Assembly (NCBI GenBank): GCA_023251915.1
Contig: JAHEXW010000004.1
Span: forward strand, 26,733-90,732
Direction of reading: 5' to 3'
Origin: Actinomycetes bacterium
Lineage (GTDB): Bacteria > Actinomycetota > JAHEXW01
DNA length: 64,000 nt
Part shown: in pieces, positions 7,843 to 59,341 of the stretch
Position numbering within the stretch: position 1 is the first letter of the stretch
Layout of the letters: every line of letters begins with the position of its first letter
Notes under the pieces: generated by a model
What the model was told of the DNA's origin: nothing
Database searches by the model: none
The model's input: only the letters and a program-made list of their open reading frames with translations
Position numbers and translations under genes: made by a program

Positions 7843-8235
7843 ATGTCCGGATCGGGTGAACAAGGCAGTATCTCGGTGGAGTTCGCGCTAGTCCTGCCCC
7901 TTGTTCTAATGGCGCTTCTCGCGGTCATTCAGACCGGAGTCGTGATGCGTGCTCACCTGATGGTGGCGCAAGCGGCGCGCGAGGGGGCCCGGCAAGCGAC
8001 AACCGCTACTAACGATGCGGAGATCGTTAAAGCCGCCACGCAGGCGGCCGCCGGCGCAAACAGCGACGTTTTATCGGTTACCTGGAATATGCCGGAGGGC
8101 GGACAGGCAGGTTCCCCAATAACCGTCTCGGCGCAAACGTCAGTTCCGTGTCTCTTCCCGTTGCTGGCCAGTGTCTGGCCGCACGCGTTTCAGGCAAAAG
8201 CGACAACCACGATGCGTCTGGAGAGAGACCGATGA
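7843..8235 (+). CDS. tadE: TadE-like pseudopilin
   Basis: N-terminal GSISVEFALVLPLVLMALLAV, the TadE motif. Confidence 0.7.
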   Translation: MSGSGEQGSISVEFALVLPLVLMALLAVIQTGVVMRAHLMVAQAAREGARQATTATNDAEIVKAATQAAAGANSDVLSVTWNMPEGGQAGSPITVSAQTSVPCLFPLLASVWPHAFQAKATTTMRLERDR

Positions 8236-8585
8236 CCGCATTACTAGCCGGATGCCTCGCCTTGGCGTTGGTATTTGTTCCGGTCACGGTGGATATCGGA
8301 ATCATTAATCGATCTCGCGCTCAAGCCGAAGCTACCGCGGACGCCGCCTCACTGGCGGCCGCCCAAGAAATGGTGAGTGGCGGTGATCTGGCCGCAGCCG
8401 CCGCTGAATACGTGGCGAAGAACGGCGGCGCCCTCAAGTCTGTCGTGGTCGAAGGCCGAAGCGTCGTCGTAACCGTGGAGGAGCCTTGCCAGACGATTTT
8501 GGCTGACCGCTTGGGTATAGAAGTTGGTCAGGCGCGGGGTAGAGGCAAAGCGGAACTGAAGGAATTCGATGAGCCGGATTATTAG
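8232..8585 (+). CDS. Tad/TadG-like Flp pilus-assembly protein (N-terminal TM)
   Basis: ATGA overlap with tadE. MTALLAGCLALALVFVPVTVDIG...AEATADAASLAAAQEM is typical of the TadE/G-like family. Start moved from the ORF-track 8148 to the ATG at 8232. Confidence 0.55.
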   Translation: MTALLAGCLALALVFVPVTVDIGIINRSRAQAEATADAASLAAAQEMVSGGDLAAAAAEYVAKNGGALKSVVVEGRSVVVTVEEPCQTILADRLGIEVGQARGRGKAELKEFDEPDY

Positions 8586-29982: not shown

Positions 29983-32121
29983 GTGATCAGACACGGCACG
30001 AATAGATCTCTGTGGACAGGCATTGGCCTCGCCGTTTTTGCTTTAGGCTACCTGGCTGTCTCCTACCTGCCCGTTTCATACCCGCTAAGGTACGTGACCC
30101 AGGGAGTTTACTTCTTAGCGGGATTGTTCACCGCCGCCGCTGTCACCGGATACGCCTTATTCCGGGCTACGCGCACCAACCGGTTCTTCTGGCTGGCCGT
30201 ATTCGGCGGGACGGTAATGTTCTTGGTTGCCGAGGCTTATTGGGTGTCATACGACATGCTGGCCGGCGGCGCCGCCGCGCCGCCTCATCCTTCCTTTACC
30301 GATATCGCCAACATCATCGGCTATATTTTCCTCTATATCGCGGTCATCTCAATGGCCCGGTTCAGCCGGTCCAACGCGGTCAGTAAGGCTCGCTACTTAA
30401 CAGACACCCTTATCGTCATCCTCTTTACGACCATTATCTACTGGGCGCTGATTCTGCAACCTATGCTGGCGGATACGAATCATAAGCTTGTCGACACGGT
30501 CTTTACCTCCCTCTATCAGCTCTTAGACATCGGTTTGCTGTTTGGCATCTTGGCCAATCTCTTTGGTTTCAAGGTCAGGAACTGGCGAGCATGGGAAGGC
30601 TACGTGGCCGGCGGGGTTGTCTTACATAGTGTCGCTGATTTCGGGTTCGCGATCCTCCAGGTCAACGGAACCTACAACATTGGTAACTTGTGGGCTAACA
30701 TGACCGACATCACCTGGCTGGCGGGGTATTTTTGCTTCGCTGTCGCGGGCATCATCTTCATGCGTAAGACCGAGGCGTTATCGACAGACGACGCCGGGGC
30801 GGAGACCCTGCGCGCTATCTCCAAGTGGCAAGAAGTCGTTGTCGTTGCTGTAATCGCGATCGGATTGCCGTTCTATGTTTTGCTCGGATTGAACGCCACC
30901 CTAGTCTCGGAGCGGTGGGTGTTTTCTATCACCGGCGTGGTCGCAATCGCCCTGGCCGTGCTCTGGGGGATATTAGTTATCCAAGAGAATAACCAGCTAT
31001 TGTCGGGTACCGTAATCGACCCAATTTCAGGTCTCTTTAACGCCGAATTCTATCGAGACCGCCTGGAAGCCGAGCTTAGCCGGGCAAAACGTTTTTCGGA
31101 GACACTGTGCGTGGTAATAATCGATATCAACGGTCTGGGTCAGGTCAACAACGTGTTCGGGTATACAGCCGGCGACCAGGTCTTGGCGGATCTGGGCGGA
31201 ATCATTAGGAAGGTTGTCCGTCTATCCGATGTTGCTTGCCGGGTCGGCGGCGATGAGTTCGGCCTGATCTTGCCAGAATCGGACAAACGAGAAGCTCTCA
31301 AATTATGTCACCTGATTCAGGCTGACCTGGTTGACAAACGAGGACCGGGAGAGCCGGACGTCACTTTGGCGTGGGGCATTGCCGGCTTCCCCCAAGATGC
31401 GACAGACAGCGTTGGCCTGATGAAGACGGCCGATAATGCCGTCTACTGGCATAAATTCTATGACAACACTCAGGTTTGCATGATAGACGAACAGGCGCCG
31501 CCGGCGATGTTTGATGAAGTAGACCGGAAGAACGAGGAAAAAGCCTATTTGAAAGCCATCATGGCCATGGCGGCCGCTGTTGACGCTCGCGATCCGTTTA
31601 CGAGGTTTCATTCTAAGAATGTGGCGCGCTATGCTCGCTTGCTCGCTGAGGAAATGGGGTTGCCGGACGAGCGGGTCAAGCTGGTCGAAACGGCCGCGCT
31701 GGTGCATGACGTCGGCAAGATAGGCATTCCCGATAAGATTCTGCGGAAGCCAGAGCCTTTGAGCGCGGAGGACCGCGTCTGGGTCAGAGAGCACCCGGCG
31801 CTGGGACAAAGAATGCTGGCCGCGTCAACCGTACCGGACATACTGCCCTGGATCGCGGCGCATCACGAACATTGGGACGGCGACGGTTATCCGGCCGGTC
31901 TTAAGGGTGAGCAGATACCGCTGGAGGCGGCCATTCTATCGGTTTGCGACGCCTACGAGGCGATGACGTCGGAACGTTCTTATCGCCCCGCGATGACGCA
32001 AGAGAGAGCGTTGCTGGAGATTGAGATCAACGCCAGTGTGATGTACCATCCCGTGGTCGCGCAGATGTTTGTCGGCATGATCAAGACACAAGCGGTGTCA
32101 GACCCGTCTACTAAAGCCTAG
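29983..32121 (+). CDS. membrane sensor with GGDEF diguanylate cyclase plus HD-GYP phosphodiesterase domains
   Basis: About 9 N-terminal TM. GGDEF intact (RVGGDEFGLIL). HD-GYP: HDVGKIGIP ... HHEHWDGDGYP. GTG start. Confidence 0.8.
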   Translation: MIRHGTNRSLWTGIGLAVFALGYLAVSYLPVSYPLRYVTQGVYFLAGLFTAAAVTGYALFRATRTNRFFWLAVFGGTVMFLVAEAYWVSYDMLAGGAAAPPHPSFTDIANIIGYIFLYIAVISMARFSRSNAVSKARYLTDTLIVILFTTIIYWALILQPMLADTNHKLVDTVFTSLYQLLDIGLLFGILANLFGFKVRNWRAWEGYVAGGVVLHSVADFGFAILQVNGTYNIGNLWANMTDITWLAGYFCFAVAGIIFMRKTEALSTDDAGAETLRAISKWQEVVVVAVIAIGLPFYVLLGLNATLVSERWVFSITGVVAIALAVLWGILVIQENNQLLSGTVIDPISGLFNAEFYRDRLEAELSRAKRFSETLCVVIIDINGLGQVNNVFGYTAGDQVLADLGGIIRKVVRLSDVACRVGGDEFGLILPESDKREALKLCHLIQADLVDKRGPGEPDVTLAWGIAGFPQDATDSVGLMKTADNAVYWHKFYDNTQVCMIDEQAPPAMFDEVDRKNEEKAYLKAIMAMAAAVDARDPFTRFHSKNVARYARLLAEEMGLPDERVKLVETAALVHDVGKIGIPDKILRKPEPLSAEDRVWVREHPALGQRMLAASTVPDILPWIAAHHEHWDGDGYPAGLKGEQIPLEAAILSVCDAYEAMTSERSYRPAMTQERALLEIEINASVMYHPVVAQMFVGMIKTQAVSDPSTKA

Positions 32122-32435
32122 TCCTCACCAACCGCCGGCCGGCGGAGCAGATTGCTGATATCCCTGAACAGATTCGAAGTCGGTTCGGCGACGACGCGTC
32201 CGATCGGGTGGCGCAGCCTGGCCCCCAAGAGCTGGCCGGTGAAGAACGCCAGAACAGATACCGGCAGGATCAGAAAACCGTAGCCGAATTCCCACCTCAT
32301 CAAGACGATAAAGGGTACGGTCGTGTGAACGGCCAGGATCCAATCGAGAGTGAATTTCTGTGTATTGCCTCGCCAGTAACCGAAAGGGATGTTCATCCCG
32401 AAAACCAGGCAGACATAAAGCAGTAGCTTAAGCAT
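32118..32435 (-). CDS. hypothetical small membrane protein
   Basis: 105 aa, 3 TM. Tail-to-tail 4-bp overlap with the sensor gene. Confidence 0.4.
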   Translation of the reverse strand: MLKLLLYVCLVFGMNIPFGYWRGNTQKFTLDWILAVHTTVPFIVLMRWEFGYGFLILPVSVLAFFTGQLLGARLRHPIGRVVAEPTSNLFRDISNLLRRPAVGED

Positions 32436-32507
32436 TATTTAATTGTAACACGCGCCGTCCGGGCGACCATTCTATCGAAGCAAGACGGCATGATATAATC
32501 AAGAATA

Positions 32508-33386
32508 ATGAATGACCCGCAAAACACCTACGAAGAGCCAAGTCCAGAAGAAGGCCGCCAGCGTTCGGGCACGAGGAAGCTGGTAAAGTATTCCAGCATG
32601 ACCGGTACGATTGTTCTCGCTATCCTGGCTTTGCTGATTGTGCCCAACCTGGTTGCATTCTCACCCGCCTATTGCGGCACCTGTCACGTTGATCAATACG
32701 CGGCTTGGACGCATGCGACACACAAAAACGTTACCTGCACCGATTGTCACATTCCCCGCGACACCTGGAGCGCTTTCAAGGCCCGGATCGGCATGTTGGA
32801 CAAGCTGGTTTATCTGACGGGCATGTACGCGACAAAACACAACGTTTTGGGCTTCGAGGCCGTGCCGCAAGACAACAACTGCAATTTCTGCCACAAAGCA
32901 AAGCGAAGCGTTACCCCGGCCGGAGATCTGATAATTCCGCACGCGTCTCATACGAAGCTACAGAAACTAAGGTGTGCCCAGTGCCACAAAGAGTTAGTGC
33001 ATAGCGCCGCGGCTAAGAATGGCCACAAGCCGTCAATGATCGGATGCTATCGTTGTCATGACGGCAAGACGGCGCCGAACAGCTGCAGCGTTTGTCATAC
33101 GGAGAAGGCGCTGCCGCCGGACCACAGGGCGGCGGATTGGCTAAGAACCCACAGTGACGTCCAAAAACGCGACCCGTCCTATTGTGACGGATGCCACGGC
33201 TGGGTAGCGGACTATTGTACGGAGTGCCATAAGCGCAAGCCCCGCAGTCATGACAAGACTTGGCCCCGAGCGCATCAGGGGCTAATGGCGACTGATCGGA
33301 AAGAGGGCTGCGCGAAATGTCACGGGACACAGAAGTGCCAAAGCTGTCACACCAAGACTACTAAGTTAGCGCCGCCGAAGGTATAG
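32508..33386 (+). CDS. membrane-anchored decahaem c-type cytochrome
   Basis: Ten CxxCH motifs (CGTCH, CTDCH, CNFCH, CAQCH, CYRCH, CSVCH, CDGCH, CTECH, CAKCH, CQSCH) in 292 aa. One N-terminal TM helix. Confidence 0.8.
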   Translation: MNDPQNTYEEPSPEEGRQRSGTRKLVKYSSMTGTIVLAILALLIVPNLVAFSPAYCGTCHVDQYAAWTHATHKNVTCTDCHIPRDTWSAFKARIGMLDKLVYLTGMYATKHNVLGFEAVPQDNNCNFCHKAKRSVTPAGDLIIPHASHTKLQKLRCAQCHKELVHSAAAKNGHKPSMIGCYRCHDGKTAPNSCSVCHTEKALPPDHRAADWLRTHSDVQKRDPSYCDGCHGWVADYCTECHKRKPRSHDKTWPRAHQGLMATDRKEGCAKCHGTQKCQSCHTKTTKLAPPKV

Positions 33387-33393
33387 TGTCTGG

Positions 33394-33801
33394 CTAGGTA
33401 ACCTTAATTGTAAAGGTCAGTGATTTTAGCGGCACGACGTCGGTTTCCCAGGGTTTCCCCAAATTCAACTTGATCTTAGTCTCACCCTGCTCCAGCGCCT
33501 TATAAATCCACGTGTGTTCACCCGGTGCGCCCGCCTTATCAGATGTCGACGCGTAGTATTGGTCGCTGACTTTCTCGACGACCCGCGTGTCCATGCCGTC
33601 CGCCTGGGACCAAACATAGCCGGTCGATTCGTCAGACTCCAGAACGATGTTGATTTCGTCGCCGGCTTTTAACTCGATTGTACTGCCCGAGTTTGCCTCG
33701 GTATATTTCTTGACAGCGCCTCCGCCGCAACCTGCAAGTACGATTGCCAACAACAGCAAAACAAGCCCTGTCGCCAAATGACTAAGTCTTTTGATGCTCA
33801 T
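33394..33801 (-). CDS. chagasin-family (MEROPS I42) cysteine-protease inhibitor lipoprotein
   Basis: Lipobox LAGCGG. STGYVW, GAPGEHTW and KPWE match the I42 NPTTGY / GAPG / RPW loops. Start trimmed to MSIKRL. Confidence 0.65.
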   Translation of the reverse strand: MSIKRLSHLATGLVLLLLAIVLAGCGGGAVKKYTEANSGSTIELKAGDEINIVLESDESTGYVWSQADGMDTRVVEKVSDQYYASTSDKAGAPGEHTWIYKALEQGETKIKLNLGKPWETDVVPLKSLTFTIKVT

Positions 33802-33958
33802 GAAAGCTCTCCCTTCGATGTAAGATTGCGCCGTAACGGTTACAAGCATATATTAATCAGAAATGCTTGTGCAACACCTCACGAGACCGGAGCAATTTGC
33901 GCAAAGCGATTGGTTCCCCCTAGAATGAACTATCAGCCTAAAGGCAAGAAAGGCGGTT

Positions 33959-34861
33959 ATGGAAAGTCTCCTGAGCTTCGGGCTCGAGATAATCAGATTT
34001 GTCCAACAAATTCATGGTCCGCACCTCGATTCTTTCTTTCGCGCTGTAACGTCGTTGGGCGGAGGCGAGATATACATCCTGCTTCTGCCGGTGTTCTTTT
34101 GGTGTGTTGACACCGGACTGGGAGCGCACGCGGGCTTCATTTTCTTGATTTCCAGCTACGTGGCCAACGGTCTCAAGGATTTATGGCAGCAACCGCGGCC
34201 GTTCCAGATCGATCCAACGGTTAAGCTAGCCGATGCCGCCGGCTATGGCCTGCCAAGCTTCCATGCCCTGGAGGCAACCGTCATGTGGGGAATATTCGCC
34301 ATCTGGTTAAAGAAGCCCTGGTTTTGGGTGCTGGCCGTGACCATGATGCTGCTGATCGGGTTTTCTCGTATCTATTTAGGCGTTCATTTTCCGACTGACA
34401 TTCTGGCGGGTTACGCTATCGGCGCGCTGTTTCTGTGGATGTACGTAACGGGAGGCCACACTTTCGAGCGGTGGCTGAAAGCACTGCCCTTTAAATGGCA
34501 GGTCGGCCTGTCATTCGCCGTACCGCTTGTCCTGGCGATCAGCCACCCGACCGATGACGTCATCCTGATCATGTCGGCATTCAGCGGTTTCTGCCTCGGC
34601 CTAGCCTGTCTTTACCGTTACTTTTCCTTCAGCGCGGCCGGACCGATCTGGCAGCGCGTAGCCCGCTTCATTGTTGGCGATATCGCCATATTGTTGCTCT
34701 ACGCCGCGCCGCGCCTGTTGGGCTTCGTCAACAACCCGGGCGCACTTCATTCCCCATTACGGTACCTGCACTACGGTGCTATCGGCGTCTGGATCACATT
34801 TGGCGGTCCTTGGCTGTTCCTGAAGCTGAAACTGGCGGGTCCGGCCCTTAAGGAGGCCTAA
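33959..34861 (+). CDS. PAP2-family phosphatase (membrane)
   Basis: KDLWQQPRP, PSFHAL, SRIYLGVHFPTDILAG: the three PAP2 motifs. Confidence 0.8.
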   Translation: MESLLSFGLEIIRFVQQIHGPHLDSFFRAVTSLGGGEIYILLLPVFFWCVDTGLGAHAGFIFLISSYVANGLKDLWQQPRPFQIDPTVKLADAAGYGLPSFHALEATVMWGIFAIWLKKPWFWVLAVTMMLLIGFSRIYLGVHFPTDILAGYAIGALFLWMYVTGGHTFERWLKALPFKWQVGLSFAVPLVLAISHPTDDVILIMSAFSGFCLGLACLYRYFSFSAAGPIWQRVARFIVGDIAILLLYAAPRLLGFVNNPGALHSPLRYLHYGAIGVWITFGGPWLFLKLKLAGPALKEA

Positions 34862-38685: not shown

Positions 38686-39816
38686 ATGAAAATTGTCGCC
38701 TACGTAATACGTCCCGCCGAAGGCGGAATGCTAAAACACCTCCTTGACTTGATCGGCCGCCTGGACAGAGAGCGATTTACACCTATCGTTCTTAGCCCTC
38801 CGGGTAATAATCTGGAAGAACCGCTGGAGCGGCTGGGCATCGAGCTGATTGAAGTAGATATTGCCGACAAGCCGAACCTAGCCCGCGACGTCGGCTCGAT
38901 CGCCCGTTTAGCGACAGCCTTAACAGCGGTCGGCCCGGATATTATTCACGCGCATAGTAATAAAGCGGCTTTGTTAGTTGAGATGGCCGCTCGCCGCGGT
39001 TCCCTAGATGCGGCGGTCGTTTTCTCCGTGCATAATTTTCCCAGTTATCGCGGGACCGGCGGCCTCAAGCGGGCGATATCGTCACTAGCGTTGCGGCGCG
39101 TAATAAATGGCGCGGAGGTTGTCATCGCCGTATCGCAAAGCCTCAAAGACTCTCTGGTGGAACATGAGAGAGTTGATATATCCAAGATCACAGTCGTGCA
39201 CAACGGAATCGATAGCGGAACTTTCCACCCGGTTAAAGAGGCGGAAACGCGCCGGCTGCGCGATGCTCTGGGGCTGGCGCCCAATACGCCGGTGGTGGGA
39301 ACGGTCGGACGGCTTATTCCGTCCAAGGGCATGGATGTCTTGATACAGGCGGCGCCGGAGCTGGTTCACAAATTTCCGGGCTTGAAGATAATCATTGTCG
39401 GCTCGGGCCCGATGCAGCAATCGTTGCGGTCTACGGCCGCCGGTCTGGGGTTGAGTCGAGACATCGTATTCACCGGTCACGTGGCCGAACTGCTGCCTTA
39501 TTACGCGCTCTTTGATGTCTTCGCCTTACCGACAACAGCGGAGGCGTTCGGTATGACGGCAGTCGAGGCGATGCTGGCCGGCTGTCCTGTAGTGGCGAGC
39601 CGGACGGGCGGGTTATCGGAGATAATTGCCAATCGGGAAACCGGCCTGTTGGTACCGCCGGGTGATTCCGGCGCTTTGGCGGCGGCCATAAGAGCGCAGC
39701 TCACTGATACCAGGGCAGCTAGAAAGATGGCGGCGAGAGCGCAAACGGTTGCGCGTGAGCAGTTTTCCTTAACCAGAATGGTTGCTGAAACCGAGGCGAT
39801 CTACGATAGTCTCTAG
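38686..39816 (+). CDS. GT4-family glycosyltransferase
   Basis: C-terminal EAFGMTAVEAMLAGCPVVASRTGGLSEII (E-x7-E region). Confidence 0.8.
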   Translation: MKIVAYVIRPAEGGMLKHLLDLIGRLDRERFTPIVLSPPGNNLEEPLERLGIELIEVDIADKPNLARDVGSIARLATALTAVGPDIIHAHSNKAALLVEMAARRGSLDAAVVFSVHNFPSYRGTGGLKRAISSLALRRVINGAEVVIAVSQSLKDSLVEHERVDISKITVVHNGIDSGTFHPVKEAETRRLRDALGLAPNTPVVGTVGRLIPSKGMDVLIQAAPELVHKFPGLKIIIVGSGPMQQSLRSTAAGLGLSRDIVFTGHVAELLPYYALFDVFALPTTAEAFGMTAVEAMLAGCPVVASRTGGLSEIIANRETGLLVPPGDSGALAAAIRAQLTDTRAARKMAARAQTVAREQFSLTRMVAETEAIYDSL

Positions 39817-41216
39817 AAGAACTGAACGACGTCGATCCCCAATTCCCAAGGATCAATTACCCTGATTATCGACCGAACAAAAGCCTCCGCGTTTTCGGTC
39901 CGCTCGCTCATTTCCAGGATCGCGGCTTCCGCAGGATCGAGATGTTTGCCGTTCTCGTCGATTGCTATCTTGATGCGCGGCCGGGCGAGATCAGCGGTGT
40001 TTGTCTCGTAGACAACAGCGATTTCGCCGCTATCGAGGAGGACAACAGAACCGACGGGGTAGATGGATAATGTTTGCACGAACGCTTTCATGATTACCGG
40101 GTCGAACGTGCGTCCGGATTGTCTAATCATCTCTGCCAGAACTTGGTCGGGCAGCTTGCTGCCCTTAAAGGGCCGCATCGATGTGCCTGCTTCGTAACTG
40201 TCGGCGACCTGCACGATCCGGCTGAACAGGTGAGGCCTTTCCTTGTTGGTCAGCTTGGGGTAGCCTGATAGGTCATAACCGACGTGGTGTTCGTACGCGA
40301 CAACCATGGAAAGTTTATGCATCCCCGGCATCTGGCTGAGGATTTCAGCGCCCTCGATCGGGTGGCGCTTCATGACCTCGAATTCTTCCGGCGTCAACGG
40401 CATAGGCTTGGTTGTCAGGTCCTTGGGAACGTTGACCTTACCGATGTCGTGCAGCAACGCCGCGGCGCCTAGAATAGCCAGTTTGTCGTGTTCGAGCGAC
40501 AAATTATTGCCCAAGCTCAGGCAGAGGATACACGTGTTGACGGAGTGATAAAAGGTCGTTTCGTCGTAGCTCTTGATAACGGTCAGGCCGAGCAGGTTAA
40601 GGTGGTCGGTGAAGAGCGCCTCTGTCAAACCGCCGACAATCTTCTCGACCTTCTGTACGCTCACCCCTTGCCCGATCTTTGCGCTCTTCATTATGTCTTT
40701 AACCGCTGTTACCGCGGAGTTGTAGACTTCCTTGGCCGCTTTTGTTTCCGTTTCTTCATGCTCGATATCATCGGCTTCGGCGGCGGCGGAGCTGATAACA
40801 ATGTTGGGCGCGCCCCGGTTCTTCAGGCGGTTCGCCAGGCCGCCCTCATTTTCGAGCGTTTGCCTGTCGGTACACAAGGCGTCCATAAGGGCTTCGATCT
40901 CGGTTTCATCGATTCCTTTTAGGAAGGTGATGGCGCCGATGTCCATGGCAGCGCATTCCTTGATAAAGCCGGCGTAGGTGACGCTTTCGCGTATCAGGAG
41001 TTCACTTTCGATAAAGAGGTCGTCATCGTGCATCGCGTATGTGATGTCGCCCAGCTGATCCAAGAGACTGCTAAGGGAGCGGTGCAGACGTTTTGAACCG
41101 TCAAGGAGTTCCGGATGTTGGGCGGGATAAAGCAGTGTCTTGCGCTTTAGCGCGACCATTTGTTCGAAGACTATTTTTGCGTCTGCAAGTTGAGTGCTGT
41201 TCAGTGTCTTTGGCAT
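39813..41216 (-). CDS. HD-GYP domain protein with N-terminal DUF3391-like domain
   Basis: HDIGKVNVP ... HHVGYDLSGYP. Confidence 0.7.
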   Translation of the reverse strand: MPKTLNSTQLADAKIVFEQMVALKRKTLLYPAQHPELLDGSKRLHRSLSSLLDQLGDITYAMHDDDLFIESELLIRESVTYAGFIKECAAMDIGAITFLKGIDETEIEALMDALCTDRQTLENEGGLANRLKNRGAPNIVISSAAAEADDIEHEETETKAAKEVYNSAVTAVKDIMKSAKIGQGVSVQKVEKIVGGLTEALFTDHLNLLGLTVIKSYDETTFYHSVNTCILCLSLGNNLSLEHDKLAILGAAALLHDIGKVNVPKDLTTKPMPLTPEEFEVMKRHPIEGAEILSQMPGMHKLSMVVAYEHHVGYDLSGYPKLTNKERPHLFSRIVQVADSYEAGTSMRPFKGSKLPDQVLAEMIRQSGRTFDPVIMKAFVQTLSIYPVGSVVLLDSGEIAVVYETNTADLARPRIKIAIDENGKHLDPAEAAILEMSERTENAEAFVRSIIRVIDPWELGIDVVQFF

Positions 41217-44014: not shown

Positions 44015-45001
44015 GTGGGTTTGTTCGGAAAGGTCAAAAAACACAACGAGTCTATGTCGTCGCCGCCGGAGGTGCAGCAGCATTCGGCGGCCTTAGTGCG
44101 TTCAGCGTGCGACAAAATTAGAGCCGGGAAGATCGGACCTGCGGTCGCCGAGTTGGAGGAAGCCGTTAAAACCGACCCGGGTTGTTTCTCAGCCTGGGTT
44201 GAGCTAGGCGAAACTAACTGGACAATGGGGGACGCCGATGTAGCGCGCAACGCGTTAGCACACGCGCTTGAGCTGGAGCCAGACAATGTCAGAGCACTGG
44301 GATTAATGGGCGAGATATACCTGGACGCCGGCGACTTCAACACATCCTTGACCTATTTTCGCCGCGCCTTGTCGCAAAAGCCTGATCTTCTCAAGGGATG
44401 GGGTTTCTCCGGGGACACCTATCTAAAGACGGAGAGCTTCGAAAGCTCGCTCAAATGCTATGAACTGGCCCTGCAGGAAAGCCCGAATAACGCCGAAATA
44501 TGGCATTTAATGGGCGACACGTATTTGACACTGGATCGGCTTGAGGAAGCCTTGGCGGCCTACCGAAAGGTTGTCGATCTTAAGCCGGCATTCCTCGAAG
44601 CCAGACGCAGCTTGGCCTATATTCTTTGTAAGCTGGGCGACTATGAAAAAGCTTTGGTCGAATGTGAAGCGGCGTTGCGCACAGAACCTACCGACGCCAT
44701 GTCTTGGCGTTTGCTGGGGCAGACGCAACTTTCTCTCGGGCGGTATGAAGAGGCGGCGGCGTCTGCTCAGACTGCGATCGATATTAATCCTGAGGTTGCT
44801 GAGGCTTGGAGTCTGCGCGGACTGGCATTGTTTAACCTTGGTCGCTGCGCGGAGGCGGCGTCGTCGGCCCAGCGCGCTTTGAATCTCCAACCGGGCTTAC
44901 AGGAAGCGCTTATGGTCATGGGATTTGCCAACGCGTCCCTCGGCAACAAAAAGGCGGGCGCCAAGTATCTGGCCGAAGCCGACCGCGAAGTCCTAAAGTA
45001 A
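44015..45001 (+). CDS. TPR-repeat protein
   Basis: Nine or more 34-aa W-LG-Y / A-F-P repeats. GTG start. Confidence 0.75.
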   Translation: MGLFGKVKKHNESMSSPPEVQQHSAALVRSACDKIRAGKIGPAVAELEEAVKTDPGCFSAWVELGETNWTMGDADVARNALAHALELEPDNVRALGLMGEIYLDAGDFNTSLTYFRRALSQKPDLLKGWGFSGDTYLKTESFESSLKCYELALQESPNNAEIWHLMGDTYLTLDRLEEALAAYRKVVDLKPAFLEARRSLAYILCKLGDYEKALVECEAALRTEPTDAMSWRLLGQTQLSLGRYEEAAASAQTAIDINPEVAEAWSLRGLALFNLGRCAEAASSAQRALNLQPGLQEALMVMGFANASLGNKKAGAKYLAEADREVLK

Positions 45002-48037: not shown

Positions 48038-48778
48038 ATGGCATACATGTCCGCGCGGGAAGCGCAACATGTCCAAGCAAAGGAGGAGACCAAAGTGAAT
48101 TCATTTGCCAGTGGAAGTTCGCGGCAGCGGCAGGTTGGAGGTCTTGCGGCGTTATATCTAGCAGCGGCTTATTTGGTGGCGATGCCGTACTTCATTATAT
48201 TCGTGAAGTACCGCGACGTTGTGGATCCCTTTAAGAAGGTGGCATTGCTTGTGGCTAATCATAACAGCATGCGGGCCATGTATCTGATCACATACGTCGT
48301 TTTCGGTATCGTCTTGGCCATGTTGGCGCTGGCGCTTTACGCGCGTCTTAAGGATGATGCCCCGATATTGGCCCAAGCGGCAACGGTCACGGGGCTCATA
48401 TGGGCCGTCGTGCTTGTCGCTAGCGGGATGATCTTCAATGCCGGTGTAGCGGCGGTCGTTGGACTACAGGCCACAAGTCCGGGTCAGGCCGTTGCTGCCT
48501 GGCAAGCAATCGAGCCGGTGGCTGAAGGCCTTGGGGGTTCGGGCGGCGAGCTTCTCGGCGGCCTGTGGGTAATGCTTGTGAGCCTGGCCGCGCTACGCAC
48601 CGGGAGGCAGCCCAAGGCGTTGAACTGGCTTGGAGTGGCTATCGGCGCCGCAGGCGTCCTATCGGTCGTGCCGCCGTTAAAGGATTTAGCCTTTGGCTTT
48701 GGGTTATTGCAGATCGCGTGGTTCATTTGGCTGGGCATTATCATGCTGCGCCGCCCTAAGGCGCTACCTTCAGAGTGA
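48038..48778 (+). CDS. DUF4386-like membrane protein (divergent from TetR)
   Basis: 6 TM; this family is typically paired with a TetR gene. Confidence 0.5.
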   Translation: MAYMSAREAQHVQAKEETKVNSFASGSSRQRQVGGLAALYLAAAYLVAMPYFIIFVKYRDVVDPFKKVALLVANHNSMRAMYLITYVVFGIVLAMLALALYARLKDDAPILAQAATVTGLIWAVVLVASGMIFNAGVAAVVGLQATSPGQAVAAWQAIEPVAEGLGGSGGELLGGLWVMLVSLAALRTGRQPKALNWLGVAIGAAGVLSVVPPLKDLAFGFGLLQIAWFIWLGIIMLRRPKALPSE

Positions 48779-50582
48779 CGGTTGTGCCTTGGTCAACCTT
48801 TGTCCCAGCGGACACGCTTTGGCTCCAGACGTATCCGGAGACGATACCTGGTTTTGCCTGAGACACCAGTGTGGCGACTAAACCGCGGTCTTGGAGCCAA
48901 GTCTGCGCAGCCGCTCCGGTCATGCCCTCGGCCACAAAGTCGATCAAAGTGACCGATTTAGGGCCCTTGCTGACGGTTATCGTAACGGTCGAGCCTTTCT
49001 TGGCTTTGGCTCCGGCCGCCGGCGTTTGCTTGATTACGTGATCTTTGGCAATCGTATCGCTAAAATCGTCAAAGCGGTCGACCTTGAATCCGGCGTCCGT
49101 CAAGATGCTGGTCGCTGCGTCCACGGTGTTGTTTACGACATCCGGAACGTCTACGCTCTCGATGCCTTTACTGACGACAATATCGACGCTGCCGCCTTTG
49201 GCCATCTTGGCGCCGGGCTTCGGTGACTGGCTAATGATCTGGCCTTCGGCGACGGTGTCGCTGTATCCTTCCGAGACGTTGCCCAAGGTTAGGCCGGCTT
49301 TCTTTAACAAGGCTTCAGCTTCACTTTGAGTTTTGCCGGTCATGTCGGGCGCGTTGACCGTCTCTAGGCCCTTGCTCATGACGACGGTAATGGTATAGCC
49401 CTTCTTTGTCTTTTCGCCGGCTGTCGGGGTTTGGCTGACCACCCGTCCCGGGGCGACGTTATCATTGAAGACCTCTCGCTCAACCTTCAGCTTCAGTCCG
49501 GCGGCCTTCGCCGCGCTTTGCGCCTGGCTAAGAGTCTTGCCTTTTAAGTCCGGAACGACGACTGACGGTCCGTTGAGCAGGGTATAGGCCAATGCGGCTC
49601 CCCCAAGGAGCAACAAGACGGCGCCCGCGATTATTGCGGCGATCAGACCTTTTTTGGGCTTGCGCTCTGTCCGTGCCGCGGGCCGCGGTCGCTGGGCCGC
49701 CATCGTTCGGGTCATATCGGAAGAATCGCCGGCGATTGGGACGGTGCCCATGATTTTGACAGGCAGGCCTTCAATCACGCGCTTGAGATCGTCCCGCAAC
49801 GCCTCGGCCGACCGGTAGCGGTCGGCGGGATTCTTCGCCATCGCCTTTAGGATCACTGCCTCCAGACTTTCCGGCACCGCGGCGAACACATGACGCGGCG
49901 GCAGCGGCGTATCGTTGATGTGCTTTAGAGCTACCGCGACCGGGTTCTCACCGCGGAACGGAAGCTCGCCCGTGGCCATCTCGTAAATAACAACACCCAA
50001 AGAATAGATGTCCGTTGTTGGGTCGATAACACTGCCTTGCGCCTGTTCGGGGGATATATAGTGGGCGGTTCCCAGAATGGCGCCGGTACGGGTCATAGTG
50101 GAAGTCGAGCCGGCTCTGGCGATACCGAAATCGGTTACCTTGATCTCGCCTGTTTCCGTGATGATCACGTTTTGCGGCTTAATGTCGCGATGGATGATCT
50201 CATGCTGGTGGGCGAATTCCATCGCCTTAGCGATCTGCATCGCGATATGAACGACCTTCTCGGTCGATAAGGGCGCGTCTTTCTGGATGAGTTTCTTCAG
50301 CGTCACGCCCTTGACGTATTCCATAACGATAAAGTAGACGCCGTCTTCCTGCCCGACGTCGTAGATGCTGACAATGTTGGGATGATTCAGCTTGGCGGCC
50401 GCGCGGGCTTCGCGCCGAAAACGCTCCAGGAAGCCTTCGTCGGTGGCAAACTGCTTATGTAGTATCTTAAGCGCGACGATTCGCCCCAGCTCGAGATCCT
50501 CGGCCCTGTAGACGTCGGCCATGCCGCCGCCGCCGATTTTCTCGATAACTCTATAGCGTTTATTGAATACCGCTTCGTTCAA
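48756..50582 (-). CDS. pknB: Ser/Thr protein kinase with four PASTA domains
   Basis: Kinase subdomains (GGGGMADVY, HRDIKPQN, DFGIA, SPEQ), one TM, and four repeated approximately 65-aa PASTA units. Confidence 0.9.
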   Translation of the reverse strand: MNEAVFNKRYRVIEKIGGGGMADVYRAEDLELGRIVALKILHKQFATDEGFLERFRREARAAAKLNHPNIVSIYDVGQEDGVYFIVMEYVKGVTLKKLIQKDAPLSTEKVVHIAMQIAKAMEFAHQHEIIHRDIKPQNVIITETGEIKVTDFGIARAGSTSTMTRTGAILGTAHYISPEQAQGSVIDPTTDIYSLGVVIYEMATGELPFRGENPVAVALKHINDTPLPPRHVFAAVPESLEAVILKAMAKNPADRYRSAEALRDDLKRVIEGLPVKIMGTVPIAGDSSDMTRTMAAQRPRPAARTERKPKKGLIAAIIAGAVLLLLGGAALAYTLLNGPSVVVPDLKGKTLSQAQSAAKAAGLKLKVEREVFNDNVAPGRVVSQTPTAGEKTKKGYTITVVMSKGLETVNAPDMTGKTQSEAEALLKKAGLTLGNVSEGYSDTVAEGQIISQSPKPGAKMAKGGSVDIVVSKGIESVDVPDVVNNTVDAATSILTDAGFKVDRFDDFSDTIAKDHVIKQTPAAGAKAKKGSTVTITVSKGPKSVTLIDFVAEGMTGAAAQTWLQDRGLVATLVSQAKPGIVSGYVWSQSVSAGTKVDQGTTVTLKVAP

Positions 50583-50620
50583 AAATCCTCCCTTGTGTCA
50601 CGAGTAGTATATACGTGGAG

Positions 50621-52021
50621 CTAGGGGCTTTTCAAAGCCTCATCCAAGAGCGCCCGGACGATCGGTCCGGCTGAGCCTGACCCCGTACCTCCGTTCTCAA
50701 CAATAACAGCAATCGCAATCTGCGGATTGTCCGCCGGGGCGAATGCGACAAACCAACCATGAGTCTGGCCGGGAATCCCTGTTTCAGCGGTGCCTGTCTT
50801 TGAGGCGACTCTTATGCCGGGTATGTTGACTACACTGCCGAAGCCTTCTTGGGTCACGCCCACCATCATATCGGTCAGGGTAGCCGCGGCCGGGGCCGAT
50901 ATCGCTTGCTCCCGCTCGCTGGTACCGGCGGTGCGGACTACCATGCCTTTAGCATCCTTGATCAGGCTGACTACATAAGGATTCATTGAGACACCGTCAT
51001 TCGCAATCGCGGCGGTAGCCAAGGCCATCTCAAACGGATTGGTAACCGTTTTGGCTTGACCGATAGCCGTCCAGGCGACGTCAACCTCGTCCATCGCGCT
51101 GGGACGTTTGACCCGGCTGATCTTAACCGGTATGTCAAAAGGGATCTCAGTATTGAAACCGAACTTGGAGGCGTATTGGAACAGCCGGTTTGCGCCGAGC
51201 TTCAAGCCGACTTGAGCGAAGACCGTGTTCACCGAAAACTCAAGGGCCTCCTTGAATGTGACCCGCCCGAACACCCGGTCGTTGAGGTTTTTTACCGTCG
51301 TTCCCATTACCTCCAGCGAGCCCGTGTCGTCAAAGGTGTCGGTCGGGCGGTAGATTCCTTCTTCCAACGCGGCGCCGGCTGTGATGATTTTGAACGTCGA
51401 ACCGGGCGCATAGGCGCCTTCGGTCGCGCGATTTACCAGGGGCGCATTGGCGTCTGCCGTGATAACCGTCCACGACGAATCGACCTCGTTGAGATCGAAC
51501 GACGGCGACGAAGCCATGGCCAACACCGCGCCGGTTTTGGGATCCAAGGCCACCACAGCGCCTTTTTGCCCAGCCAGCCCTGCCTCGGCGACTTTCTGCA
51601 GGCGAGTATCGAGGGTCAACGTTAGACTGCCGCCGCGCTTCTCGGGCCGTTTGAATTTCCGTGTCAGGTCCGTGATGAACCCGGCGCTGTCCGTACCTAG
51701 CAGGTAATCGTCATATGTCTTCTCCAGACCGCTGTTGTGGTAGCGATAACTGGAATAGCCGATAAGCTGCGCTGCCATCGCGCCTTGCGGATACTGTCGC
51801 TCGTAGTGATTGCCGACCTTGCGGCTGGTTGCTAAGACAATCCCGTCGGCGCTGGTGATTTGACCTCGCTCTGTCGTCCGCGCGGTTTCCGCGGCGCGAG
51901 TGTTAGCCGGGTTGGAGGCCAAATCCTTGCCCTGGAAAAGAACGATATAAGAGACATTCAATACGAGAAGCGCAAACATACCCAAAAAGACGAGTGTGAT
52001 GACGCGTATTTGCCGGTTCAT
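50621..52021 (-). CDS. pbpA: penicillin-binding protein 2-like transpeptidase
   Basis: STFK (PGSTFKII), SVN and KTGTA motifs. Confidence 0.85.
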   Translation of the reverse strand: MNRQIRVITLVFLGMFALLVLNVSYIVLFQGKDLASNPANTRAAETARTTERGQITSADGIVLATSRKVGNHYERQYPQGAMAAQLIGYSSYRYHNSGLEKTYDDYLLGTDSAGFITDLTRKFKRPEKRGGSLTLTLDTRLQKVAEAGLAGQKGAVVALDPKTGAVLAMASSPSFDLNEVDSSWTVITADANAPLVNRATEGAYAPGSTFKIITAGAALEEGIYRPTDTFDDTGSLEVMGTTVKNLNDRVFGRVTFKEALEFSVNTVFAQVGLKLGANRLFQYASKFGFNTEIPFDIPVKISRVKRPSAMDEVDVAWTAIGQAKTVTNPFEMALATAAIANDGVSMNPYVVSLIKDAKGMVVRTAGTSEREQAISAPAAATLTDMMVGVTQEGFGSVVNIPGIRVASKTGTAETGIPGQTHGWFVAFAPADNPQIAIAVIVENGGTGSGSAGPIVRALLDEALKSP

Positions 52022-53322
52022 TTAATCTCGCTCGCTTCTTCGATGGATTGATTGGAGACTTTCAACAATAATCCGAGCAGGATAAAGTTGGACAAAATCG
52101 AACTGCCGCCGTAGCTCAAGAACGGCAGCGTTATGCCGGTCAGCGGGACCAACCGGGTGACGCCTCCGATAATGACAAACGTTTGAATGGCAAAAACAGC
52201 CGTGAGGCCAACGGCCAAGAGTTTGCCGAAGTCGTCGGCCGTCTTGTTGGCGATGTTCAGCCCGCGGCCTACAAACGCGAGGTAGATTGTAATAACCGCG
52301 ATGACGCCAACGAGCCCGATCTCCTCTCCAAAGGCGCTGAAGATAAAATCCGTCGTAACAACAGGAATTAGAGTCGGATAGCCACGTCCCAAGCCGGCGC
52401 CCCAGATACCTCCGCTCCCCAGTGCGAACAATGACTGCACCAGCTGGTAGCTCTTGCCGGCCGGGTCGGACCAGGGATTGAGCCAGATTTGAATGCGGGT
52501 CGCGACGTGGCTGAAGGCCCGGGCCGCAAACGTTGCGCCGCCGACGAACAAGACGCTGCCGATGGCGACGTACAATCCCCGGTTGGTCGCGACATATAGC
52601 ATGACGAGGAATAGGCCGAAGAAGAGCAAGCTGGCTCCGATGTCTTTCTGGATTACCAACAGACCGAGCGAAACGAGCCAAAACAGAAGCATCGGGCCGA
52701 GGTGTTTAGGGTCGGGAACACTGACGCGGCCGATCTTGCGGGTGAAGACACTCAAGAGTTCGCGCTTCTCGCTCAGATAGGCGGCGAAAAAGATGACAAT
52801 CAAAATCTTGGCAATTTCGGAGGGCTGGAAACTGAACGGGCCGAGGTTCCACCACAGATTGGGCTCCAGGAAGCCGGCGCCGAAGCGTATCGTTGAAAAC
52901 AAGAGTACTAAACCGGTCAGTCCGAGCAGATACTTATAGTTGGCCAATGAGCGATAGTTCTTAAAGCGTGCGACCAGTACGATAAGGATGATGTTGCCGA
53001 CCGCCACCCAGGCGAGTTGGCGCCATGCCAGAGTCAGGTCGAGGCGGTAGATCATCGTCAGGCTCAACCCGGTCAACAGGGCCGCGAGCGGCAGCAGCAG
53101 CGGGTCGGCATGGGGCGCAAAAACGCGCAAGGCAAGATGCGAGGCGAGGTACAACAACGTGTAAATGAGGGCCGCAGCGATAATTACCGTGGCGCCCAAG
53201 CGCGGCGCTGAAACTTGCGTTGCCGCCAGGGCCGCACCGGCGAGCAAGAGCGCACCGGCAAGGAGCTTTAGTTCCCTGTTTCGTCGGGGCGATTTAATCA
53301 CCCGCGGGCTCCCTTGGTTCAA
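52018..53322 (-). CDS. rodA: SEDS-family peptidoglycan polymerase (RodA/FtsW)
   Basis: 10 TM; the conserved SEDS loop. Confidence 0.85.
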   Translation of the reverse strand: MNQGSPRVIKSPRRNRELKLLAGALLLAGAALAATQVSAPRLGATVIIAAALIYTLLYLASHLALRVFAPHADPLLLPLAALLTGLSLTMIYRLDLTLAWRQLAWVAVGNIILIVLVARFKNYRSLANYKYLLGLTGLVLLFSTIRFGAGFLEPNLWWNLGPFSFQPSEIAKILIVIFFAAYLSEKRELLSVFTRKIGRVSVPDPKHLGPMLLFWLVSLGLLVIQKDIGASLLFFGLFLVMLYVATNRGLYVAIGSVLFVGGATFAARAFSHVATRIQIWLNPWSDPAGKSYQLVQSLFALGSGGIWGAGLGRGYPTLIPVVTTDFIFSAFGEEIGLVGVIAVITIYLAFVGRGLNIANKTADDFGKLLAVGLTAVFAIQTFVIIGGVTRLVPLTGITLPFLSYGGSSILSNFILLGLLLKVSNQSIEEASEIK

Positions 53323-54025
53323 TCAAGATCAGCGTAATGTTATCTTCGCCGCCGGCATCCAGAGCCGCTTGCACGAGATTATCGGCGGCATCGTCTAAAT
53401 TAGCGGCATTGTTGATAATGTCCCGAATCACGTCCGGCTCAAGCTTGGCTGACAGGCCGTCAGAACAGAGCAGAATGATGTCGCCCGGCTTACCAGGCCA
53501 GCGGGAAACGTCGGCGGTCACAGTCGGGTATGTACCGAGCGCCCTGGTTATCACGTGCTTGAGCGGGTGAATCCGGGCCAACTCTTCGTCAATCTCGCCG
53601 CGGGCAATCATTTCTTGTACCAAGGTGTGGTCAACGGTCCATTGCGTAAGGTGGCCGTCGCGCAGCAGATAGGCCCGGCTGTCGCCCACCTGAGCCAGAA
53701 ACAGCTCGTCGCCGTCGATATAAGCGGCCGTAAGCGTTGTTCCCATGCCGGCATAGGCTCTTTTGCGCGCGGCTGCGGCGTGAACAGCGTCGTTCGCAGC
53801 TCCTACCGCGGCAACCAATGCGTCCGCGACGGCTTCACCTGGCGTTTCTTCAGGGGGCGGACCGAAAGCGGCGGCAAAAGTTTCCAGAGCCAAGGCGCTG
53901 GCGATTTCCCCGGCGTTGTGTCCGCCCATCCCGTCCGCGACGGCGAACAAACGGCCGTCCGCCAACCAAGAGTCCTCGTTTATTTCGCGCAGTTTCCCAA
54001 TATCAGAACGGGTCACGTATTTCAT
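53294..54025 (-). CDS. pstP: PP2C-family Ser/Thr phosphatase
   Basis: ADGMGGH..., DGDELFLAQVGDSRAYL, LCSDGL. Confidence 0.85.
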   Translation of the reverse strand: MKYVTRSDIGKLREINEDSWLADGRLFAVADGMGGHNAGEIASALALETFAAAFGPPPEETPGEAVADALVAAVGAANDAVHAAAARKRAYAGMGTTLTAAYIDGDELFLAQVGDSRAYLLRDGHLTQWTVDHTLVQEMIARGEIDEELARIHPLKHVITRALGTYPTVTADVSRWPGKPGDIILLCSDGLSAKLEPDVIRDIINNAANLDDAADNLVQAALDAGGEDNITLILIEPREPAGD

Positions 54026-54504
54026 TACATCTTCACCTGGAAAATCGTGTCCCCGATCTTGATCTTCAACCCGTTCTTTAGCCGCACCGGTTCGGTCACC
54101 CGGTCGTGCCCGATGAAAGTTCCATTAGTGCTGCCCAGATCCATCAACCACCATTCGTCCAACTTCTTTATGATGCGGCTGTGTTGATGGCTGACCAAAG
54201 GGTCGCGCAAAACGATTTCCGTCTCGGTCGAGCGCCCGATAGTCACGATGTCAGTCAGTGGATAAATGCGCCCCGGATTGACGAAATCGCTTTTGACCAC
54301 TTCTAACGCCGCGTTTTCCGCCGGACGCGCCCGGCGCTTTTGTTCCATCGCTTCGCGCGCCTCACTATACGGAACGGGACGCTCATAGATGTCGATATAG
54401 ATGGCCCTGACTACACGGCCCAGAAATACATACAGGAGGATAACAAACGCCAGGTTGATTAGAGTCACGTAGCCGGGCGCCACGCTAAAACCGCCGGAAG
54501 ACAA
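54025..54504 (-). CDS. fhaB: FHA-domain protein FhaB/FipA-like (N-terminal TM)
   Basis: C-terminal FHA (GR..E..I.L.D..VS..HA.I...). Confidence 0.8.
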   Translation of the reverse strand: MSSGGFSVAPGYVTLINLAFVILLYVFLGRVVRAIYIDIYERPVPYSEAREAMEQKRRARPAENAALEVVKSDFVNPGRIYPLTDIVTIGRSTETEIVLRDPLVSHQHSRIIKKLDEWWLMDLGSTNGTFIGHDRVTEPVRLKNGLKIKIGDTIFQVKM

Positions 54505-55165
54505 AAACGACTTCGCCGGCGCCGATCTTGTCGCCGTCTTTCAATTCGATCTCGGCGACGCGTTTTCCGTTGACGAATGTCCCGTTGGTGGCCCCAAGGT
54601 CGGAGAGGAAGAAGCGCCCGTCTCTCGCCGTGATTTCGGCGTGATGCCGGGAGAGACTGGGATCGGGCACAGGAACGTCGTTGGATGCCAGCCGTCCGAT
54701 GGTAGCGCGGCCCGGACCAAGCAAGAAAGTCTCGCCCTCTTCTTGACCGAGCAACATCGTCAACGACGCCAGCGCTTCGAGACCGTCTTGTTTGGCGGGC
54801 GTCACCAGGCGCGCGTCCACGTCGACCAAGCCCGCCGGTTGGTTCGCGTCTTCCGCTAAGATTATGACGGGCACGCCCAGCATTACATAGCCCTTTTCTT
54901 TCCGGCGCTTGTCCAAAAAGGTGGTCAGCTCGTTGATTAAGCGATCAGTGAAGTCGATCATAGCCGCCAGATCGGCAGGATTTAGCCGGGCAGTGTATTC
55001 GTTAGGTATGTAGATTTTCGAGACTCCGACCGTTCGGCCGGACTCCATTGCCCGGTCCAACTTCTTGGCAATTTCTATGGGCTGGACTCCGGACTTGAAA
55101 CCCTTGGCAAAAGCGCCCTCAACGGTCCGCTCTAGCTTGGCTTCCAGGTCTTTAAGTAGGCTCAC
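54485..55165 (-). CDS. fhaA: FhaA-like protein (DUF3662 plus FHA)
   Basis: N-terminal MSLLKDLEAKLERTVEGAF...; C-terminal FHA. Confidence 0.8.
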   Translation of the reverse strand: MSLLKDLEAKLERTVEGAFAKGFKSGVQPIEIAKKLDRAMESGRTVGVSKIYIPNEYTARLNPADLAAMIDFTDRLINELTTFLDKRRKEKGYVMLGVPVIILAEDANQPAGLVDVDARLVTPAKQDGLEALASLTMLLGQEEGETFLLGPGRATIGRLASNDVPVPDPSLSRHHAEITARDGRFFLSDLGATNGTFVNGKRVAEIELKDGDKIGAGEVVFVFRRF

Positions 55166-59293: not shown

Positions 59294-59304
59294 AGACGCG
59301 CTAC

Positions 59305-59340
59305 GTCATTGCTAGGAGCGCAGTGACGAAGCAACCTCCC
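59305..59340 (+). repeat. GTCATTGCGAGG-family repeat copy (variant GTCATTGCTAGG) between larC and larB
   Basis: GTCATTGCTAGGAgcgcaGTGACGAAGCAACCTCCC. Confidence 0.5.
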
Positions 59341-59341
59341 C

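Follow-up and report, generated by a model that had tools for sequence, protein, structure and literature searches.

The 64-kb stretch of actinobacterial DNA analyzed here (part of contig JAHEXW010000004.1, referred to as the window at its full length) contains, at 32508..33386 of the forward strand, the coding sequence of a 292-residue decahaem c-type cytochrome which, judged by homology, belongs to the known ImdcA-type branch of the NapC/NirT superfamily, where it is a new and compact representative from an actinobacterium. The evidence consists of the open reading frame (ORF) itself, Pfam and NCBIfam models, profile alignments with hhalign and the ratio of nonsynonymous to synonymous substitution rates (dN/dS). 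As an ImdcA-type membrane decahaem protein, it is rather likely to form the quinol-dehydrogenase start of an electron route to the outside of the cell, a role that rests on homology and not on experiment. The one unusual property of this cytochrome is its solitary position amid conserved genes that are not redox-related.

The reading frame starts at the first ATG past an in-frame stop codon. CxxCH motifs begin at residues 56, 77, 125, 156, 180, 193, 226, 237, 268, and 277, and these ten account for all 20 cysteines of the protein, which has 21 histidines in total. In the other ~63 kb of the window, read in six frames, four CxxCH-like strings occur, two of which contain a stop codon, and this background rate predicts about 0.01 motifs per 292 residues. 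Because this rate is so low, the clustering of ten motifs in a single ORF is far beyond chance. The gene is real and encodes a membrane-anchored protein with ten haem motifs, as the first-pass annotation of the DNA had described (ten CxxCH motifs and one N-terminal transmembrane helix in 292 residues) and as both the motif scan and the hydropathy analysis agree.

The membrane-associated part of the cytochrome comprises a single hydrophobic segment, residues 31–53 (32598..32666), with a Kyte–Doolittle window maximum of 2.48 at residues 33–51. The AlphaFold model places a single long helix at residues 20–50, and in a profile match from the Protein Data Bank (PDB) this segment aligns with the membrane helix of NrfH. 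It is preceded by a tail that is hydrophilic by composition and hydropathy (residues 1–30; 32508..32597), in which five Lys/Arg residues are clustered beside the helix and which, following the positive-inside rule, would be located on the cytoplasmic side. Since the layout consists of this tail and one helix, the segment is predicted to be a transmembrane signal anchor and not a cleavable signal peptide.

The anchor is followed by an NrfH/NapC-like tetrahaem module that harbors haems 1–4 (residues 56–165; 32673..33002), the proposed quinol-oxidizing part of the protein, which includes the invariant His72, His145, His148, and His165 as well as Lys99 on the helix after haem 2. The Pfam model PF03264 (NapC/NirT) matches residues 51–167 with 29.0 bits against a cut-off of 24.1, covering profile positions 34–171 of 174, and the best NCBIfam model is that of NrfH (TIGR03153), which aligns positions 7–138 of its 138 with residues 34–165 at 55 bits, for a cut-off of 134.2. 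Matches in PDB structure searches are likewise confined to this NrfH-like N-terminal part. By these matches, the helix and the first four haems are an NrfH/NapC-type module, and the NapC/NrfH family is one of membrane quinol dehydrogenases.

The haems beyond this module belong to two further types of arrangement. Firstly, a cytochrome c7-like stretch with haems 4–6 (residues 144–198; 32937..33101) holds the invariant Met177 and is recognized over these same residues by PF14522 (cytochrome c7; 43.8 bits against a cut-off of 24.8, E 2.3e-11), as well as by PDB profile matches to PpcA and to the c7-type repeats of 3ov0, whose deposited name is 'cytochrome c family protein'. The NCBIfam domain model nanowire_3heme reaches 18 bits against a cut-off of 40 and, hence, stays below threshold. 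Secondly, self-alignment (residues 193–241 versus 237–281) and conservation delimit two tandem units with haems 6–8 and 8–10, which together span residues 193–281 (33084..33350). These units follow the pattern CxxCH-x5-8-P-x-x-H-x3-4-W-x3-H-x10-CxxCH-x4-6-CxxCH, supply the conserved His206, His215, His248, and His256, and have counterparts with the same pattern in ImdcA and PdcA.

Haem motifs 2–10 are invariant in 25 aligned homologues down to 29% identity, and the haem-1 motif is absent only in four distant relatives among them. Outside the motifs, His72, His145, His148, His165, His215, His256, and Met177 are invariant in the alignment of relatives, while His206 and His248 are found in at least 90% of them. 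Eight conserved non-motif histidines and Met177 make nine candidate distal ligands for ten haems, a count that would be compatible with one haem of open or water-filled coordination. The quinol-site haem of CymA and NrfH is likewise open or water-filled at its sixth position. One haem of ImdcA has also been reported with such a sixth position and is possibly high-spin (PMC7911101). At the nucleotide level, comparison with two orthologues, whose proteins are 91% and 72% identical to that of the window, gives dN/dS values of 0.034 and 0.064, respectively, with synonymous sites near saturation, and the cytochrome is clearly under strong purifying selection. Because of this selection and of the invariance of haem motifs 2–10, it can be argued, if indirectly, that the product matures as a haem protein.

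The relationship with ImdcA was established with the sequences of ImdcA and PdcA given in the supplement of PMC7911101 (Figure S4 for ImdcA). BLASTP against ImdcA of Thermincola ferriacetica yields an E value of 4e-21 at 23% identity over residues 24–275, a stretch that begins in the membrane helix and reaches haem 9. In hhalign, the profile of the family matches ImdcA end to end with a probability of 99.9% (E 4.5e-33) over 245 columns, with the ten motifs in aligned columns, and PdcA with an E value of 1.7e-25 over 217 columns. The spacing of the first four motifs is nearly identical, with 21, 48, and 31 residues in the cytochrome of the window and 24, 47, and 31 residues in ImdcA. Moreover, close ImdcA homologues are retrieved by the profile of the family, including one that is 51% identical to ImdcA (P0034). 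Purification of ImdcA from membranes yielded a protein with ten haems, its N-terminus is uncleaved after expression in E. coli, and the protein is redox-active across more than 400 mV; its proposed role is the oxidation of menaquinol and the transfer of electrons to PdcA in Gram-positive extracellular electron transfer (PMC7911101). The suggestion of the first-pass annotation that the cytochrome could be a quinol-oxidizing entry point to extracellular electron transfer thus gains support from both the NrfH/NapC-type N-terminal half and the homology with ImdcA, within the limits of a comparison of sequences.

Relatives of similar length are few, only ~27 in a database of 5.8 billion clusters, and they carry no informative names. 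The superfamily at large is more populated, since hmmsearch against 1.84 billion representatives returns 346 at E<=1e-30 and 2475 at E<=1e-10; in this library, the clade of solitary cytochromes to which the window belongs collapses to very few clusters at 50% identity. The top-scoring representatives outside this clade in the profile search (P0043–P0047) are proteins of 570–740 residues with 26–32 CxxCH motifs, which open with the same anchor and decahaem module and then repeat it, carrying one haem per ~22–26 residues.

Taken together, these features suggest the following mechanism. A single N-terminal helix, left uncleaved, would tie the cytochrome to the cytoplasmic membrane, and its ten haems would be exposed on the outer face, with haems 1–4 forming an NrfH/NapC/CymA-like quinol dehydrogenase module beside the membrane. 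Menaquinol would be oxidized at haem 1, which is likely the quinol-facing haem and has no conserved distal ligand. The other six haems, in the c7-like stretch and the duplicated two-haem unit, would lengthen the chain outward, so that electrons would travel along haems 2–10 and exit at the distal end. The acceptor might be a soluble or chelated extracellular oxidant diffusing through the wall, or cytochromes and reductases encoded elsewhere. Transcription of the gene would start at an extended -10 promoter of its own and give a leaderless mRNA without further genes. Of all this, the motifs, the anchor, the homology, the purifying selection, and the conserved solitary context are shown by the analysis, whereas we infer the loading with haem, the oxidation of quinol, the direction in which electrons flow, and their acceptor.

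Several points weigh against this mechanism. A chain of ten haems is too short to cross an actinobacterial wall alone, and the acceptor or partner is missing. No genes for cytochrome maturation, menaquinone synthesis, a partner cytochrome, or a terminal reductase are present in the window or in the 15–20 kb around the orthologues of the solitary clade. The identity with ImdcA is merely 23%, and the AlphaFold model is mediocre (predicted local distance difference test score of 68), was built without haems, and provides no haem geometry. Furthermore, the quinol oxidase activity of ImdcA itself has been proposed but not demonstrated (PMC7911101), and a ten-haem transmembrane ImdcA homologue of Carboxydothermus ferrireducens went undetected in the proteomes of cells grown with ferrihydrite, ferric citrate, fumarate, or an electrode (PMC7829351).

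The genomic surroundings of relatives bear both on this mechanism and on its alternatives. In the solitary clade, which comprises nine loci (L001–L008 and L014) at 47–91% identity, the cytochrome gene always stands alone, and no other ORF with at least two CxxCH motifs occurs either in the window or within 15–20 kb at these loci. Six of them (L001–L006) are syntenic with the window, sharing genes for GT87, YgjP-like, GGDEF/HD-GYP, chagasin, PAP2, and MJ1433-like proteins, an ArsP pair, a histidine kinase/response regulator pair, GT4, HD-GYP, and a HEAT-repeat protein; in L004 and L005, a downstream GAF-GGDEF gene replaces the GGDEF/HD-GYP gene. The neighbors in L008 differ and encode a P-type ATPase, a DUF5661 protein, a small protein with a molybdopterin-binding oxidoreductase domain, and SufBD. 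No redox partner gene is conserved across the loci of the solitary clade.

Relatives encoded in multi-cytochrome clusters are more distant, at 34–44% identity or less. Among them, an actinomycetotal protein at 44% identity (P0191; L015/L016 1680–20537, from the 968,577-bp contig Ga0265292_1000002) belongs to a cluster of the extracellular-electron-transfer type with six multihaem cytochromes, of which one is fused to a cytochrome b domain and three are paralogues of the family of the window. It is accompanied by multihaem proteins of 339, 551 (the one with the cytochrome b domain), 279, 343, and 550 residues, and the cluster also contains genes of haem synthesis and encodes HemB, a radical-SAM/SPASM protein, HemL, Lnt, Rex, and HD-GYP, TPR, and NHL proteins. 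A relative at 34% identity (P0024; L012) has two other multihaem NapC/NirT-type genes alongside and lies beside ccmABCEF. In Bacillus sp. B-jedd (L013), the relative is encoded among four NapC-like multihaem cytochromes, each with 10–12 CxxCH motifs, along with a pair of large cytochromes of MtrC-like type and with TPR and NHL proteins.

A further group of relatives (P0020–23; L009–L011) is devoid of the CxxCH motif of haem 1, which has been lost, and shows Glu where the haem-1-bearing clade has Lys99. Their genes are arranged, for example at 5030–11736 of L010, in the order of a three-haem protein, an NrfC-like 4Fe–4S protein, NrfD as the quinol-interacting membrane subunit, and four multihaem cytochromes with 9, 8, 9, and 11–12 haems, and the member of the family comes directly after the NrfC-like protein and NrfD. 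Because these NrfD-linked relatives have lost both features, haem 1 and Lys99 appear to constitute the quinol-handling part of the proteins that work without NrfD. Thus, haem 1 and the following helix would handle the quinol and would become dispensable once NrfD is present.

The alternative that survives best, although we consider it unlikely, is that the cytochrome anchors in the membrane, and supplies with electrons, a single dedicated extracytoplasmic reductase whose gene lies elsewhere, in the manner of NrfH for NrfA, NapC for NapAB, or TorC for TorA. The six extra haems would then be a docking and relay domain, for which pentahaem TorC offers a model, and not an outlet to extracellular acceptors. 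The NrfH/NapC-like N-terminal module fits this possibility, and so does the habit of the NapC/NrfH family, which typically serves specific periplasmic reductases, together with the C-terminal haem extensions of TorC/DorC, which can be docking domains. Distant relatives, moreover, carry the Joint Genome Institute annotation 'nitrate/TMAO reductase-like tetraheme cytochrome c subunit' (TMAO, trimethylamine N-oxide). However, none of the nine solitary-clade loci has a reductase gene next to the cytochrome gene, whereas the genes for NrfH, NapC, and TorC are normally co-operonic with those of their partners. In addition, the nearest characterized full-length homologue is ImdcA, the NrfH equivalog model is matched with 55 bits versus the required 134, and the distant relatives cluster with multihaem cytochromes and TPR and NHL proteins, but not with catalytic reductases.

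A second alternative, and a decidedly improbable one, is the operation of the chain in reverse, with electrons entering the quinone pool from reduced humics, Fe(II), a cathode, or a syntrophic partner. Multihaem chains are in general reversible, and ImdcA has a redox-active range of more than 400 mV. Furthermore, strong expression of multihaem cytochromes by a biocathode strain of Coriobacteriaceae has been read as electron uptake (PMC7943316). Nevertheless, the characterized homologues come from Fe(III)- or anode-reducing bacteria.

An MtrA/DmsE-type decahaem conduit, as found in the porin–cytochrome complexes of Gram-negative bacteria, is extremely unlikely. The first-pass annotation had noted a likeness to these proteins and had named both the NapC/NrfH and the MtrA families for comparison. 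The ten haems are indeed packed at a similar density, TIGR03508 gives a weak match of 27.4 bits, and chain A of 6r2q, which we take to be MtrA even though the deposited name reads differently, is matched with an E value of 0.0013 over ~79 residues. However, the cut-off of TIGR03508 lies at 192.2 bits, far above this score, the context lacks a porin, the N-terminus is a signal anchor and not a cleavable signal, and the best matches are NrfH and ImdcA; the conduit is therefore rejected on model scores and architecture, and with it the likeness that had been proposed. Finally, the idea of a decaying or never-matured relic in a genome unable to make c-type cytochromes, prompted by the isolation of the gene and the lack of maturation genes in the window, is hardly credible at all and is rejected on selection, given a dN/dS of 0.03–0.06 with saturated synonymous sites, the invariance of haem motifs 2–10, the conserved candidates for distal ligands, and the conservation of both synteny and promoter.

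A putative extended -10 promoter element, TGaTATAAT (32491..32499 of the forward strand), can be read from the sequence and ends 8 nt before the ATG, and TGATATAAT directly precedes the start codon in the orthologous loci L001 and L006. A generic sigma-70 scan did not list this element, which has no matching -35 hexamer, and no Shine–Dalgarno sequence is found ahead of the ATG. Because the -10 element ends only 8 nt before the start codon and a Shine–Dalgarno sequence is lacking, the gene is probably transcribed separately, from a promoter of its own, into a leaderless mRNA.

Next to the cytochrome gene lie genes for a chagasin-type I42 inhibitor (33394–33849, reverse strand) and a PAP2 phosphatase (33959–34861, forward strand), the neighbors that had been named at the outset and that Pfam confirms. 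Pfam scans of ~55 ORFs covering the 64-kb window detected no porin, reductase, ccm/res gene, or second cytochrome, and tblastn with CcmB, CcmC, CcmE, and CcmF of a related locus found nothing in it, in agreement with the earlier statement that adjacent porin, reductase, and ccm genes are absent. A TPR protein of 328 residues (44015–45001, forward strand) scores 86 bits with PF23914 (TPR_CcmH_CycH); as a maturation factor it was rejected as uninformative, since many generic TPR models score higher, and no tblastn link connects it with the TPR proteins of the cytochrome clusters.

On the same strand, the gene immediately upstream of that for the cytochrome encodes a GGDEF and HD-GYP fusion of 712 residues (29983–32121). 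An HD-GYP protein is also encoded at 39813–41216 (reverse strand) of the window, and others recur within a few kb of members of the family where the context is unrelated, at 14384–15445 in L008 and at 15473–16903 in L016, which may reflect regulation linked to cyclic di-GMP or coincidence. Divergently from the cytochrome gene, a 105-residue protein without a Pfam family and with three predicted membrane helices is encoded at 32118–32435 (reverse strand), with 4 nt shared between the 3' end of its gene and the end of the GGDEF gene. It is present in L001–L005 and missing in L006, for which reason it was discarded as a consistent partner. A nitroreductase adjacent to the cytochrome gene in L004–L006 was discarded as well, since it is absent from the window; the nitroreductase family is cytoplasmic.

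The first-pass annotation had also regarded the host as monoderm-like, which is borne out by the PknB/PbpA/RodA/FhaAB cluster and GT87 in the window and by the nearest contigs, which are metagenome-assembled genomes of Actinobacteria/Actinomycetota. The closest relative of the cytochrome, at 91% protein identity, is encoded in JANXYU010000014.1. The actinobacterial cluster (48756–56952, reverse strand) encodes PknB with four PASTA domains, PbpA, RodA/FtsW, a PP2C phosphatase, FhaB, FhaA, and a second Ser/Thr kinase, and serves as a taxonomic marker for the window. Housekeeping genes include those for GT87 and GT2/GT4 glycosyltransferases, ABC transporters, Tad pilus proteins, LarBCE-like proteins, and seryl-tRNA synthetase. 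Adjacent genes at 58169–60989 (reverse strand) encode LarC-like (Ni insertion), LarB-like (related to AIR, i.e., aminoimidazole ribonucleotide, carboxylase), and LarE-like (PP-loop ATPase) proteins, and a LarBCE set makes the nickel-pincer cofactor of lactate racemase. At 1893–4610 (forward strand), a 905-residue protein in which a GNAT acetyltransferase is joined to an ADP-forming acyl-CoA synthetase combines CoA-binding, succinyl-CoA-ligase-like, and ATP-grasp domains in the architecture of Pat-type protein acetyltransferases. TadE- and TadG-like Flp-pilus proteins are encoded at 7843–8585 (forward strand), and the next genes are those of an M23 peptidase and of a protein resembling zinc phospholipase C.

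Anaerobic Actinomycetota are already known to possess multihaem cytochromes. Thus, 37 multihaem genes have been described in Coriobacteriales from bioanodes (PMC7399161), and the cultured OPB41 isolates Anaerosoma and Parvivirga possess 17–18 multihaem genes, including "putative quinol oxidizing multihemes", some of them adjoining biogenesis genes and the gene of the Rex regulator (PMC9686372). A survey of the quinol oxidases of extracellular electron transfer covered CymA, CbcL, and ImcH and did not cover the ImdcA-type family (PMC6295460). Gram-positive extracellular electron transfer is known mainly from Thermincola and a few other Bacillota, and the step at the membrane quinol pool is its least tested part. 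With the gene described here, the ImdcA-type candidate quinol oxidase is now found in one more lineage of uncultured Actinomycetota. It is quite unlikely that the solitary decahaem protein is the only multihaem cytochrome of its genome and, thus, suffices as a single protein to lead electrons all the way from the quinol pool to soluble extracellular acceptors, such as humics, chelated Fe(III), or shuttles; if this were true, it would represent a minimal monoderm device for extracellular respiration or redox balancing, reduced from the multi-cytochrome clusters of its relatives. If the genome encodes no other multihaem protein, the cytochrome would provide a natural minimal system for what such a protein does alone, whereas, if others exist, it would be one more, routine entry among the known cytochromes of anaerobic Actinomycetota.

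Among the known systems, MtrA and DmsE of Shewanella share with the cytochrome of the window ten bis-His-type haems, a similar haem density, and a role in extracellular electron transfer, which for the window would be the predicted one. They differ in being soluble proteins of the periplasm that insert into a porin of the outer membrane and have no interaction with quinol. NrfH, NapC, and CymA are closer, since an N-terminal membrane helix is followed by four haems in all of them (NrfH structure 2J7A/2VR0) and PF03264 is matched above its cut-off; NrfH is also the one solved structure that the PDB structure searches matched. Lys99, on the helix after haem 2, falls in the region of Lys82/Asp89 of NrfH, positions that were counted from the alignment and that presumably belong to the NrfH quinol site; CymA also has a functionally important Lys. 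In contrast to these proteins, the cytochrome of the window has six extra haems and no adjacent NrfA, NapAB, or other partner. An identity as NrfH proper is rejected, based on the 55 versus 134.2 bits, the lack of an adjacent nrfA, and haem 1, which reads CGTCHVD and lacks the CxxCHxM of NrfH.

The soluble Thermincola decahaem cytochrome PdcA (TherJR_0333/Tfer_1887) is homologous and has the same ten-haem layout. PdcA is soluble and its signal peptide is cleaved (PMC7911101), whereas the cytochrome of the window is predicted to keep its signal anchor behind the 30-residue cytoplasmic tail. The closest known system is ImdcA itself (TherJR_1117 of 'Thermincola potens'; Tfer_0070 of T. ferriacetica). 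With 292 versus ~344–348 residues, the cytochrome of the window is more compact and has shorter linkers between haems 4–10, and its host belongs to the Actinomycetota, whereas those of ImdcA are Bacillota. The Thermincola gene presumably lies near other cytochromes of extracellular electron transfer, whereas the gene of the window is solitary, with no cytochromes of PdcA, CwcA, or OcwA type encoded alongside it in the window. Nevertheless, both proteins come from monoderm bacteria and share a single N-terminal helix, uncleaved by experiment in ImdcA and predicted as an anchor in the window, followed by ten CxxCH motifs in the same order, the GDLI(I/V)PH motif, NrfH-like haems 1–4, and duplicated C-terminal P-x-x-H...W...H units.

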